DNA of 64,000 nt. Source: an uncultured Alphaproteobacteria bacterium. Its GTDB lineage: Bacteria; Pseudomonadota; Alphaproteobacteria; CAAHEQ01; UBA3637. Positions 54,001 to 57,000 of this stretch are shown one piece after another. Made by a program: the position numbers. The stretch lies in contig CALXVS010000002.1 in assembly GCA_944392145.1 (NCBI GenBank), forward strand, positions 6,525 through 70,524. Reading direction: 5' to 3'. How positions within the stretch are numbered: the first letter of the stretch is position 1; each line of letters starts with the position of its first letter.

Positions 54001-57000
54001 TTTTGGGAGAATGGTTTTATCGTGTGAAGCGAGATATTATTGAAAATGACGAGCAATTGTGGGGATCAAAAGCTTGGGGAAAAACAGCGTTATTTTTAAT
54101 GGATCCGATAACCGAGGTGAACAACATTATTTGGGAATGTGATAAACCCGATCGGTTTGAAATGCATTCAACACCCATGATTACACGTACGGGTCGATTG
54201 GGATACGGGTTGACGTTTAGCTTGTCATTTTAAAACAAGGGAACTTTATTAAAAAATATGTTATTCCCATATGAAAGTAAGAAAGGTCTGGGAGGCTTAC
54301 TTGCATTACGGGGGATTAATCCTTTTAATTGTTGCATAAGTCAGCATTTCATATGACTAACTTTTTTAGTTATAACTTTTCAATATCATCATGACACCGG
54401 TTATGTTGATTTTTTTATATAAGCAGCTTGAATCGGTTGCATATTTTTTTAAAGAATAAGTCTATCCCGTCCTCATTTTTTCAACTTGTTTTGAACAAGT
54501 TATCAATTTTTAATTTATTTTTTTTATATTATATGTCATACTTACCTTTATGATAATGGAAGAACCGATTCAAATCGTTCAAAACAGTGTAATTTTGAAG
54601 GTGCGTGTATCACCCGGTGCCAAGCGGAGTGGGTTTGAAGGTGTATGGAATCAATCGCATTTGCGATTAGCATTACGTGCACCGGCAGTTGAGGGTAAGG
54701 CCAACAAGGCATTGATAGTATTTTTAGCCGATTTTTGTCATGTTCGGCAAGTATATATTAAGCTTGAAGCGGGATTAACAGGACGGCTGAAACAGATTCG
54801 CATTATTTGTTCCGATCAAGAAAAAGCTTTGGTTTTAAAAAACAAATTGATGCATGTTATAGGACTTTAGATATTTCGGATAGACTTTTATCTTGACATT
54901 TTAGGATAATTTAACCCATAATAAAATATATTGTGTTTTGTTGGGAAACAAACGGTGGGAGCATGTTTGAAGCGCCTTTGGGCTTCATTGTTCAATTTTG
55001 CATTGCTTTTTTGGCCTTAGGTTTGATAAACTTTACTTTTTTAATTGTTTATCGGTGTGTTTACGGTCAAAATTGTTATCTGTTATCAAATTTTTCAGGT
55101 ACATTTATAAGTGGTTTGTATTTTCGGTTTCATGCACAGAATGCGTTTCAGTTTCAGCTTGATTTTATTTTGATTTTGTCATGCCAATTTGTTTGGTATA
55201 TAATTACTTATCGTCGCAGTGCGGCGGCTTGGAAAGATCCGTTAGATCGCATGCAGCCGCCCCGAACGGCATTAGGAACGGCAAAAGGGGTTATTTGCTT
55301 TTTTCTTGCTTTATTCTGTTATAAATATTCTTCTGATTTTTTACGCTTCCTTCATGATCCTTCGCGGCGTGCATTGACGTTGTATAGTTGAATATAAACG
55401 ATTTGCACTGGAAAGTGCTTATGTCCCCGGATTGACACGTAATTCTGGAAATGTTTTGTTTACGTGGATTCGGTGGCGCCTTTGAAAGGATTTGTTCATA
55501 AGATTTTTTTAATTTGAGGAATGTTTATGTAAATAGGGCCGAATTATTTCTTGTTCAAAAATAGCAACTGTTGTTTCGGTATCATTATAATGTGTCGGTA
55601 AGGACATAAAATCATGGATACATTTTAAATAGGTGTTATATGTTTCATCAGACATGTGTTTCAGAAACGTATATAATTCTTGGTAAGAAGAAAAATCATC
55701 CCGGTTTATCAGACAGTTCTTTGGAACATAATCATAAATATCAGGGGCCCCCGAATAAATCGGAACGGCACCGCCCGCCATGGCGTCAAATATTTTTTCA
55801 CTGACATATCCCGGGAATTTGGCATTTTCATACGCTAAAATAAATTTTGCCGTACGCACGGTTTGTATCTTATCTTTTGCCCAACCTTTATAAACAAGAT
55901 CAAATGCTTTTTGGTCATTTTCAGAAAGTGTTTTTTTAAAACGGGGCCATCCGCTACCATATAAGTTAAAATCCTGCGGTGCATTTTTTATAAAGTAATC
56001 GGTTGCTCGGCGACGTTCGGAATAATTTTCCAACGACGAACCGTGCGAATGATTGGTGGCGATTTGTGCAACCAATATTTTTTTATCGGCCAATGTCGGA
56101 AAAGGAGATAATACTTTGCTATAATCATAAGGAATTGGCATGTAAAAATATTTTTTATTATCCACCAAATCACGTTTATAGGTAAAAATTTTATCATATC
56201 GGTTCATCAGATTTTGATCTGCGGCAACACGGATGGTTATCGGTGTTTCAAGGAGCCACAAAAAAGCGGGCGCCTTTGCGTTATCCGGTAATCGGTAGTT
56301 TGGACGGGCGACCAAGATCAAGTCACTTTCCGTGACGGGTGTAATATCATGTGTATTGATTGTATGTCCCAACCGTTCTATTTCCTTTTTCAGGGCAATT
56401 AGTGTCGGATGGTTTTTAAGCACACTGTTTTTCATTCCGCCATTCCAAATAGCAACCGTTACATTAAGCGGTTTAATCGGCTGCTGCATTATATAACAAC
56501 CGATGAATATGCCGGTCAGACATAAAAATCCCCATAACGCGGGTTTCTTGAAAAAAGATTGGAAATACCGTTTGGAAAACATTCGGAAAACACTTTCTTA
56601 AAAAAGACAATCAGAATACGACATCTATTTTTATGGGAGTAACATGTTTTAATATACCTGTCAATATAAAAACAATCATTTGTAAATTTTATTTAACATA
56701 CGGTTTAATTAAACTCTTTAAAATACCGATTGACGGCACGAACCAGAGCTTGCCCTAACTCCCGACGATAAGAGGCCTTTTGTAATTGGCGTTCTTCTGA
56801 CCGATTGGATAAATACCCCAATTCCACTAAAACAGATGGAATATTCGGTGATTTTAAAACGACAAAGCCGGCAAACCGATGCGCATTGGGAACGAGTTTA
56901 ACATTCTTTTTCATTTCACTAACAACGTGTGTCGCATATAGTGCCGATTTATCCATAGTTTCTCGTTTAGCCAAATCAATTAAAATGTTCCCAACCTCCG

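Follow-up and report, generated by a model that had tools for sequence, protein, structure and literature searches.

Within a 64-kb stretch of DNA from an uncultured alphaproteobacterium (contig CALXVS010000002.1; the whole of this stretch is called the window below) lies a gene whose product is predicted to be a fucosyltransferase (FucT) of glycosyltransferase (GT) family 10 (GT10), headed by an N-terminal segment that resembles an export signal. The open reading frame (ORF) occupies exactly the interval at which the original prediction, made from the DNA sequence, had placed an alpha-1,3-fucosyltransferase-like gene. The gene and the features within and before it are as follows.

Positions 55509 to 56582, minus strand: GT10-family fucosyltransferase gene, an ORF of 357 amino acids with an ATG start.
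Positions 56583 to 56612, minus strand: likely ribosome-binding region, with AAGAAAGTG located 8 nt upstream of the ATG of M1.
Positions 56496 to 56582, minus strand: N-terminal export signal or anchor, residues 1-29, with an n-region containing K4, R5, K12, and K13, a hydrophobic core from A15 to G28, and the lipobox FIGC at Cys29.
Positions 56247 to 56249, minus strand: codon of Glu112 (in LLETP), the putative catalytic base, invariant in 32 homologues and placed by profile alignment to FUT9.
Positions 55788 to 55844, minus strand: GDP-fucose-binding motif FILAYENAKFPGYVSEKIF, residues 247-265 (E252, N253, Y259, E262, K263), placed by alignment.

The last of these is the C-terminal motif that the original prediction had quoted as a GT10 signature, and a search with Pfam hidden Markov models (HMMs), similar to the CAZy/dbCAN search proposed there as a check, bears the family assignment out: PF00852 (Glyco_transf_10) matches residues 236-325 (E 3.4e-14) and, at 53.3 bits, clears its gathering cutoff of 23.9, and the same domain is present in all 53 homologues found. 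Compared with PDB chains by phmmer, the protein retrieves GT10 enzymes only, namely, mango FUT13 (7yro, 4.6e-11), human FUT9 (8d0o, 6e-10), Helicobacter pylori FucT (2nzw, 6e-9), and Arabidopsis FUT11 (9s6a, 4.2e-8), and a profile built from 32 homologues reaches human FUT9 at E 2.8e-24, its best match in the PDB. These sequence comparisons confirm the GT10 assignment of the ORF far beyond chance, and the window protein is very probably a GT10 fucosyltransferase. Only over residues 236-330, the donor-binding half at the C-terminus, is the protein directly similar to characterized GT10 enzymes; the N-terminal half, left uncovered in a Pfam scan that otherwise gave a weak, subthreshold Glyco_trans_1_2 match, is recognizable as GT10 solely via profile alignment and predicted fold. 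To our knowledge, all characterized members of the family use GDP-fucose.

An AlphaFold2 model of the protein, computed with a 32-sequence alignment as input, reaches a mean predicted local distance difference test (pLDDT) score of 92.5 and a predicted template modeling (pTM) score of 0.86. Its first matches in a Foldseek comparison with the PDB are the H. pylori alpha1,3-FucT structures 2nzw and 2nzx (E 3e-13, TM score 0.57-0.62, about 360 aligned columns), with FUT9 next (E 7e-12) and generic GT-B enzymes only after these; the top nine matches are all H. pylori FucT and FUT9, and their alignments span both domains. By this model, the protein adopts a GT-B fold, and its closest structural neighbors among solved proteins are GT10 enzymes. 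Residues E112, T134, R190, F247, E252, N253, Y259, K263, P274, Y276, and G278 are invariant across the 32 homologues, at least 90% of which also have E262. Profile alignment places E112 on the Glu of the FUT9 motif NLESP (chain residue E100, equal to Glu137; the chain-to-protein offset of +37 was verified via Asn246 and Lys256), N253 on Asn246, and K263 on Lys256; these and the other structural equivalences given here come from alignments, not from structural superposition. Glu137 is the proposed catalytic base of FUT9, in which roles are also described for Asn246 and Lys256 (PMC12717137). The window motif aligns with FNLCFENTQGYGYVTEKII of H. pylori FucT and FYLSFENSIHKDYITEKLY of FUT9 and satisfies the alpha1,3-FucT donor motif F-x-[LV]-x-[FY]-E-N-...-Y-[VI]-[ST]-E-K. 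Judged from the sequence, the GT10 catalytic apparatus is intact, and activity is predicted.

What sets the protein apart is its N-terminus, which reads MFSKRYFQSFFKKPALWGFLCLTGIFIGC followed by YIMQQP and comprises four positive charges, an 18-residue hydrophobic core, and then the lipobox; FLCLTGIFIGC, ending at Cys29, together with a Lys or Arg in the first seven residues, satisfies the PROSITE-type lipoprotein rule. The charges around the core are +4 before it and +1 after it, and the model has a helix at residues 14-33. Lgt (PF01790), which is needed for lipoprotein maturation, is encoded at window positions 8817-9641. An in-frame upstream ATG at 56624-56622, used in the gene call of a 99% identical homologue (P0001) to give 14 additional codons, is closed in the window by a TAA at 56600-56598, where P0001 has TTA; this favors M1 at 56582 as the real start. 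We also considered a leaderless protein initiated at the internal M32 and judged it unlikely: no purine-rich, Shine-Dalgarno-like element could be read upstream of M32, and relatives lack an internal Met. Since many relatives have no Met after the hydrophobic segment, that segment must be translated in them.

Among the relatives, P0006 is the sole other homologue that meets the full lipobox rule, with its Cys in an unrelated sequence context, while P0001, P0004, and P0017 fit the lipobox pattern and fail the position or charge conditions. The remaining members of the clade described below have sites like those of signal peptidase I or plain anchors, the former being seen in P0008 (CAVSA before ASGD), P0054 (CIALA before DTPE, at the end of MKRWLLCFLMMLVPCIALA), and P0002 (FCFA before QG). 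From these sequences, the conserved feature appears to be an N-terminal export-type signal, not a lipoprotein fate.

This feature is distributed as a trait of particular lineages. The cluster representatives found by an exhaustive HMMER search number 7,095 at E<=1e-3, of which 217 reach E<=1e-30, and a strongly hydrophobic N-terminal segment is present in 80-90% of the nearest 30 representatives versus about 35% of the next 120. In a neighbor-joining tree of the catalytic-domain columns only (residues 60-335), with ORFs rebuilt from 80 species-representative genome loci, the window protein groups with proteins from metagenome-assembled genomes (MAGs) of uncultured Alphaproteobacteria. All nine sequences of this clade are signal bearing, and the hydrophobic N-terminus of every alphaproteobacterial member is equivalent to that of the window protein. 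A second clade, rich in Chlamydiae and Dependentiae/Babeliales, is signal bearing in 23 of its 29 members, the exceptions being mostly sequences just under threshold or with uncertain starts. The third extends over many phyla, including Campylobacterota (Helicobacter among them), the candidate phyla radiation (CPR), Omnitrophota, Spirochaetes, Planctomycetes, Bdellovibrionota, Elusimicrobiota, Cyanobacteria, and others; none of its 42 sequences has a signal, and they typically start with MKKAS/TLVV right before the first strand. On this evidence, the window GT10 belongs to a distinct clade found only in MAGs of uncultured Alphaproteobacteria. The clade has also lost four cysteines that both of the others conserve, has kept the universal C290, and has gained C321 (78% within the clade, 0% elsewhere), leaving exactly two cysteines, C290 and C321, in the mature domain of the window protein; the pattern fits an oxidizing compartment, a point that is only suggestive. 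As a separate observation, one alphaproteobacterial MAG (L006) has two GT10 paralogues, at 466-1239 and 3917-4798, within 4 kb.

The relatives of the window protein also give an indication of what such enzymes might synthesize. P0054 is a single polypeptide of 886 amino acids, with a textbook signal peptide, that joins GT10, GT11, and GT6 domains and is 43% identical to the window protein, and P0061 (903 amino acids, 35% identity) joins the same three behind a signal anchor, each Pfam domain being above its cutoff in both. That P0061 has this domain architecture in spite of its much lower identity shows that the fusion is conserved and did not arise in assembly. The corresponding features in related genomes are these.

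L002, positions 9992 to 12652, plus strand: GT10-GT11-GT6 fusion ORF of 886 amino acids in an alphaproteobacterial MAG, a 42% identical relative of the window protein and near-identical to P0054.
L002, 7521 to 9992; L003, 4957 to 7425; L004, 2899 to 5370; L005, 7513 to 9956: ABC-2 operons before signal-bearing GT10 genes in four alphaproteobacterial MAGs.
L001, 207 to 1767; L088, 1 to 1997: the same ABC-2 operon before a GT11 gene of 453 amino acids with a signal or anchor.

The alpha1,2-FucTs of H antigen synthesis make up GT11, and the A/B transferases belong to GT6; with GT10, these families build the ABH/Lewis determinants, the three families serving both human synthesis and that of the known bacterial mimics, and the known acceptors of GT11 and GT6 are Gal-terminated and H-type glycans (PMC4202792). 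Of the 80 related genome loci, 11 have a GT11 gene adjacent to GT10 or in its vicinity, and 2 have a GT6 gene there. In L004, a clade member, Gmd of the GDP-fucose pathway (PF16363, 437.9 bits) is encoded 3 kb from GT10; the match, first obtained with a Gmd probe, was then confirmed by Pfam. At least this organism therefore makes the GDP-fucose precursor itself. The region in question (L004:7440-11527, downstream of GT10 and a DUF167 gene) encodes an ASST-family arylsulfotransferase (PF05935, 218 bits), Gmd, and a GT4 enzyme. In L002-L005, the ABC-2 operon, comprising a DrrA-like ATPase and two permeases, one of which matches PF06182, extends exactly to the start codon of GT10. A search of the window for these GT10-linked permeases gave no homologue and generic ATPase similarity only, and GT11 or GT6 remnants, sought in the window including its orf152, were not found.

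The fusions and neighborhoods lift the Lewis/ABH reading from a guess based on a family name to a reasoned inference. The Lewis-antigen mimicry that the original prediction had proposed is plausible and gains indirect support from the GT10-GT11-GT6 fusions, from the GT11 genes near GT10, and from the Gmd of L004; within the window itself, which has no GT11, GT6, or Gmd, it finds no such partner, and GT10 membership leaves the acceptor unfixed, as FUT10 and FUT11 illustrate. We give a Lewis/ABH-type product in this organism not quite an even chance.

The donor, linkage, acceptor, topology, and Lewis-type product that we infer for the window protein would combine as follows. The N-terminal signal would target the protein to Sec, and lipidation at Cys29 or an uncleaved helix would then hold it; because of this Sec-type signal, the GT-B domain is most likely tethered on the periplasmic side of a membrane. 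There, GDP-fucose would be bound via the E252/N253/Y259/E262/K263 motif, and an envelope glycan of the Gal-GlcNAc type would receive the fucose, with inversion and with E112 serving as the base. The most likely job of the enzyme would be to add an alpha1,3/4-linked fucose that yields a Lewis-type epitope of the cell envelope, and in sister genomes the GT10 module would act with the GT11 and GT6 modules. We consider it probable that the catalytic domain is exported or faces the periplasm, and an exported, tethered GT10 enzyme that fucosylates an envelope glycan is, taken as a whole, the account that we favor with some confidence. A broader proposal, which we hold tentatively, is that Alphaproteobacteria and, independently or anciently, Chlamydiae/Dependentiae possess a lineage of Sec-exported, nucleotide-sugar-dependent (Leloir) GTs in which GT10 is placed extracytoplasmically; ABH/Lewis epitopes would be finished in the periplasm or at the surface in a Golgi-like manner, and sister genomes would carry a GT10-GT11-GT6 "blood-group synthase" behind one signal peptide. 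Such a Golgi-like arrangement requires either the export of GDP-fucose and UDP-Gal(NAc), for which the ABC-2 system coupled to GT10 and GT11 is one candidate, or the scavenging of host nucleotide sugars.

Several points weigh against an exported enzyme with a Lewis-type product. Bacterial Leloir GTs are held to act at the cytosolic face and without transmembrane domains (PMC4202792), and a periplasmic Leloir enzyme is without an established source of GDP-fucose, so that an exported enzyme with this donor would be unusual. The window is without GT11, GT6, Gmd/Fcl, galactosyltransferase, Wzx/Wzy/WaaL, or Wzm/Wzt genes; neither the acceptor pathway nor the donor supply of the organism is visible in it. 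GT10 enzymes may also take nonglycan acceptors, FUT10 and FUT11 being protein O-fucosyltransferases (PMC11949838). In the protein itself, the lipobox Cys is not conserved among orthologues; only about 6-10 residues lead from the hydrophobic segment to the first beta-strand of the model, a tether that is brief for a lipoprotein and compatible with a simple membrane anchor; and several clade members, e.g., P0009-P0013, have balanced charges around the segment. The neighbor-joining tree carries no support values. Finally, the HMM alignment near Arg202 of FUT9 is offset by an insertion, so that the invariant R190 is only the probable counterpart of this diphosphate-binding residue and the equivalence is not secured.

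Some of these points are what one would expect of a FucT that faces the cytoplasm, its helix serving as an inner-face tether beside an acceptor linked to undecaprenyl diphosphate (Und-PP) or a lipid A-core acceptor, with fucosylation taking place before export. Leloir enzymes are held to act where the nucleotide sugars are, that is, at the cytosolic face (PMC4202792), the Gmd of L004 implies a donor made in the cytoplasm, and both the very short tether and the balanced flanking charges of some clade members would suit this location. For the relatives, the corresponding reading sets the fucosylation site beside an ABC-2 (Wzm/Wzt-like) exporter, as in standard assembly of O antigen or lipooligosaccharide (LOS), and the translational coupling of GT10 to the ABC-2 operon in L002-L005 is indeed reminiscent of ABC-transporter-dependent polysaccharide pathways. 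We nevertheless regard this reading as unlikely. The positive charge is N-terminal, at +4 versus +1 in the window protein and +8 versus 0 in P0006, and predicts an N-in/C-out orientation. The hydrophobic regions of many relatives are 11-14 residues long and are followed by AXA-type sites, as is usual in signal peptides that are cleaved; a stable transmembrane helix would need a longer segment. The lipobox rule is satisfied in the window protein, the clade is depleted of cysteines with one Cys pair kept, and all 42 sequences of the leaderless clade do without any anchor.

The acceptor might also be something other than a Lewis-type glycan: the enzyme could be an O-fucosyltransferase of exported proteins, as FUT10 and FUT11 are on EMI domains, or could modify another envelope glycan, without any blood-group mimicry. 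That GT10 membership leaves the acceptor open is clear from FUT10 and FUT11 (PMC11949838). The N-domain is without sequence similarity to characterized enzymes outside the region of the catalytic Glu, the window has no GT11, GT6, or galactosyltransferase genes, and it does encode an exported-looking candidate acceptor at 28535-29773, a prepilin-like ORF followed by an ORF of teneurin-type EGF repeats. We consider such an acceptor improbable on the following grounds. Fusion to GT11 and GT6 is seen in relatives whose identity of about 42% extends across both domains; the C-terminal extension with which FUT10 and FUT11 contact the EMI domain is absent, the window protein ending at residue 357; and the EGF-like ORF is 26 kb off, with no C2-X4-5-S/T-C3 O-fucose site seen by eye. 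As to these two ORFs themselves, the first (28535-28900, plus strand) has an N-terminus like that of a type IV prepilin (QAG and then RSMVEMLGVLAIIGVL), and the second (28910-29773, plus strand) begins 10 nt on and matches PF25024 (74.7 bits) as well as PF07974. They may be one split or misstarted gene. EGF repeats are unusual in bacteria.

The gene lies in a neighborhood that the original prediction had described as an accessory surface-polysaccharide or lipopolysaccharide (LPS)-decoration region at 49.2-57.9 kb. Two of the neighbors are the following.

Positions 54550 to 54870, plus strand: DUF167/YggU gene (PF02594, 73 bits), a positional marker beside GT10 for which no functional link is claimed.
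Positions 56705 to 57871, minus strand: AmiC-type N-acetylmuramoyl-L-alanine amidase with AMIN and Amidase_3 domains (PF01520, 175.9 bits; PF11741, 43.7 bits).

The gene content named in that prediction holds up: besides the amidase with its AMIN domain, there are a secreted STELLO/DUF288-like protein (34.6 bits against a cutoff of 27.8, with a signal peptide), a kinase of the APH family whose best NCBIfam match is AmgK at 166 bits, far under the 500-bit equivalog cutoff, a PF01467 cytidylyltransferase-like protein, and a weakly matching transporter of the major facilitator superfamily (MFS). No NCBIfam model names the GT10, MFS, DUF3943, or orf152 proteins. The amidase gene is directly upstream of GT10 on the same strand with a gap of 122 nt, in which no terminator-like or strong promoter-like site was found on the minus strand, the counts of promoter-like sites equaling the shuffled expectation; cotranscription of the two genes is possible.

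The description of the block as an accessory region is another matter, since composition, conservation, neighbors, and the sister locus are all contrary to it. In its strongest form, this explanation would make GT10 part of a recently acquired accessory surface-glycan island, its product sharing a pathway with the MFS transporter and with the trio formed by the STELLO-like protein, the AmgK-like kinase, and the cytidylyltransferase. The block does bring together several genes related to the envelope or to glycans, the GC content of 54-57 kb (0.357-0.374) is the lowest of the right half of the window, and GT10 is inverted between the window genome and the sister-species locus L093, which indicates a local rearrangement. 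A comparison of GC and codon usage with the window mean, akin to the GC-skew and codon-usage check against the core genome proposed with the prediction, detected no outlier except MFS codon usage (z -2.7): the genes of the block have GC z scores of -1.3 to +0.1 and are otherwise within about 1.3 standard deviations of the window mean in GC, in GC at third codon positions (GC3), and in codon usage, with GT10 itself at 38.1% GC (z -1.2) and a codon score of z +1.1. GC skew is positive over most of the window. No integrase or transposase is encoded in 45-64 kb, and no Rfam match at the gathering threshold, and hence no tRNA, riboswitch, or other known RNA, occurs in the 64-kb window, so that the block has no flanking integrase, transposase, or tRNA. 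Genes for nucleotide-sugar synthesis accompanied by Wzx/Wzy/WaaL or Wzm/Wzt are likewise missing from 45-64 kb, and Gmd from the whole window.

Conservation points the same way. Seventeen (17) metagenomic contigs encode exactly this GT10 protein in an unchanged gene order, and in each of the 20 contigs with this AmiC, all from the same species, GT10 comes next after it. The neighbors include housekeeping genes, namely, AmiC, DUF167/YggU, and NlpE, with RNase E divergent from AmiC. In the sister species, PflB is 93% and GT10 54% identical, and the order NlpE-MFS-DUF3943-DUF167-orf152-GT10 is kept, with GT10 inverted; between NlpE and MFS there are only short remnants of the STELLO-like and cytidylyltransferase genes (L093:1088-1418). 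Because the STELLO/kinase/cytidylyltransferase trio has decayed in L093 while GT10 persists, the trio is dispensable for GT10. More distant clade members keep GT10 in unrelated core contexts (tatD-GT10-MBL-adk and accA-GT10). DUF167 adjoins GT10 in L002, L004, and L093, and the L002 fusion is convergent with it exactly as GT10 is in the window; beyond this, the MFS-DUF3943-DUF167-orf152 block of L093 is all that is shared beyond the species, and a tblastn search for AmiC/RNase E synteny outside the species found none. The island is thus a very improbable explanation and already largely refuted. Recent horizontal acquisition of GT10 was rejected in view of its ordinary composition and its presence, intact, in all species contigs read.

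Nine conspecific copies of GT10 are all intact at 1,074 nt, with 0-23 nt differences, no frameshifts, and fewer amino-acid than nucleotide changes. The longest homopolymers in the gene are two 7-nt T runs, and a phase-variable or invertible element was rejected, there being no bracketing inverted repeats and no long homopolymers, with all copies in frame. To judge from the sister locus, GT10 is evolving much faster than its neighbors, as often in surface-related genes. A decaying gene, or a GT10-like protein that uses another donor, is hardly credible: the lack of an NCBIfam name and the 54% identity to the L093 orthologue, against 93% for PflB, might suggest it, but the donor-binding and catalytic residues are all invariant, the structure model is confident, and the nine copies compared are intact.

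Other features of the window bear on the envelope and lifestyle of the organism. The STELLO-like protein of the trio, which spans 49217-51918, matches PDB entry 7xpr ("Transglycosylse," E 4e-19), and the trio may be a separate kinase-plus-cytidylyltransferase activation module for surface decoration. An operon at 41344-44592 (plus strand) encodes an ArnT-like PMT_2 glycosyltransferase (GT-C), a GT2 enzyme, and a YdjC-like deacetylase; genes arranged in this way classically serve to modify lipid A, or some other component of the envelope, in the periplasm and in a polyprenyl-phosphate-sugar-dependent manner. A 210-amino-acid ORF at 11812-12444 (minus strand) matches two type IVb pilin families, PilS N-terminal and Bundlin, weakly and below threshold. 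A single gene of the window is strongly atypical in composition, an integrase fragment of 215 amino acids from the phage-integrase family at 14280-14927 (minus strand; GC 31.3%, z -3.3; GC3 22%); it is probably what is left of a mobile element. Two pairs of amino-acid decarboxylase and permease genes occur at 30358-32501 and 61120-64000, one being a pyruvoyl arginine decarboxylase with an AA_permease and the other an Orn/Lys/Arg decarboxylase with an AA_permease, and PflB/PflA are encoded at 45506-48575; together, these suggest an anaerobic, acid-exposed lifestyle such as that of the gut. The sample and bin names of the MAGs (Lapin, SGB, BRZ), along with these anaerobic and acid-resistance genes, suggest an animal or human gut origin.

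Were the enzyme active on Lewis-type acceptors, an uncultured alphaproteobacterium that recurs on 17 metagenomic contigs would display host-like fucosylated epitopes, and the GT10-GT11-GT6 fusions of its sister species would be compact, one-gene sources of ABH/Lewis antigens. This would bear on a long-standing question, namely, which gut microbes induce the natural antibodies to A/B and Lewis antigens, and would supply candidate enzymes for the synthesis of fucosylated oligosaccharides. If export holds, it contradicts the textbook rule that nucleotide-sugar-dependent GTs of bacteria work only at the cytoplasmic face and raises a testable question, namely, by what route nucleotide sugars reach the periplasm or whether a host pool is used. 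That these Alphaproteobacteria share signal-bearing GT10s with the obligate intracellular Chlamydiae and Dependentiae could hint at their lifestyle. The family assignment itself is ordinary; what would surprise a specialist is the predicted topology together with the blood-group fusion in the relatives.

In the open-access literature searched, we found nothing on exported or periplasmic bacterial fucosyltransferases, chlamydial GT10s, or GT10-GT11-GT6 fusions, and within that literature the signal-bearing GT10 clade, with its GT11/GT6-fused and ABC-2-coupled sister genes, is an undescribed variant. The comparison that the original prediction had drawn is with Helicobacter FutA/B, and it stands for the catalytic motif alone. 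H. pylori FucT/FutA-FutB (2NZW, 2NZX, 2NZY, 5ZOI) shares the family, the two-domain GT-B build, and the donor motif (...FEN......YVTEK...) at only 18-19% identity. Helicobacter FucT continues into C-terminal heptad repeats and then amphipathic membrane-binding helices, whereas the window gene has no tandem repeat and its product stops at 357 after a single helix (335-356). Nor does the gene have the poly-C or any other long homopolymer tract of a phase-variable locus, and no Lewis-antigen gene set of the Helicobacter kind is visible in the window. The N-terminal signal or anchor is a further difference from the Helicobacter and other Campylobacterota-type relatives, which belong to the leaderless clade; FutA/B act on the cytoplasmic side of the membrane.

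Another comparison is with the known bacterial enzymes of histo-blood-group mimicry, Escherichia coli O86 WbnI (GT6) and WbwK (GT11), Bacteroides ovatus BoGT6a, and H. pylori FutC (GT11), which belong to the same families as the domains of the window protein's relatives (PMC4202792). The known enzymes are separate, leaderless, cytoplasmic proteins of O-antigen clusters; in L002/P0054, in contrast, the activities would be combined in one 886-amino-acid polypeptide behind a signal peptide, and the window organism shows the GT10 module only. A precedent for a nucleotide-sugar-dependent GT outside the Gram-negative cytoplasm is the Neisseria alpha2,3-sialyltransferase Lst, which is described, in the passage of PMC4324315 that cites Shell et al. 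2002, as an outer-membrane, surface-exposed Leloir enzyme that places a host-like sugar on LOS. Lst differs in family, fold class, and sugar, and the gonococcus takes CMP-Neu5Ac from the host. Unlike the case of Lst, no external source of GDP-fucose is known for the window organism, and a member of its clade encodes Gmd. In Chlamydia, secreted enzymes of glycogen metabolism draw on UDP-glucose that is imported from the host into the inclusion.

The eukaryotic enzymes offer a parallel in layout. Human FUT9 and the other Golgi alpha1,3/4-FucTs (8D0O etc.) share with the window protein the catalytic Glu, Asn, and Lys and an N-terminal hydrophobic targeting segment, and Golgi GTs have a type II topology with the catalytic domain outside the cytosol (PMC4202792). 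The window protein is bacterial and lacks their stem region. Golgi fucosyltransferases receive GDP-fucose via a dedicated nucleotide-sugar transporter, for which there is no known bacterial counterpart here. Human FUT10 and FUT11 (POFUT3/4), with which the window protein shares the GT10 family and a conserved GDP-fucose pocket, act on folded proteins in an extracytoplasmic compartment (PMC11949838); the window protein lacks their C-terminal extension, which has an additional disulfide and makes contact with the EMI domain. In contrast to these protein-modifying enzymes, the fusion partners of the window protein's relatives point to glycan acceptors.

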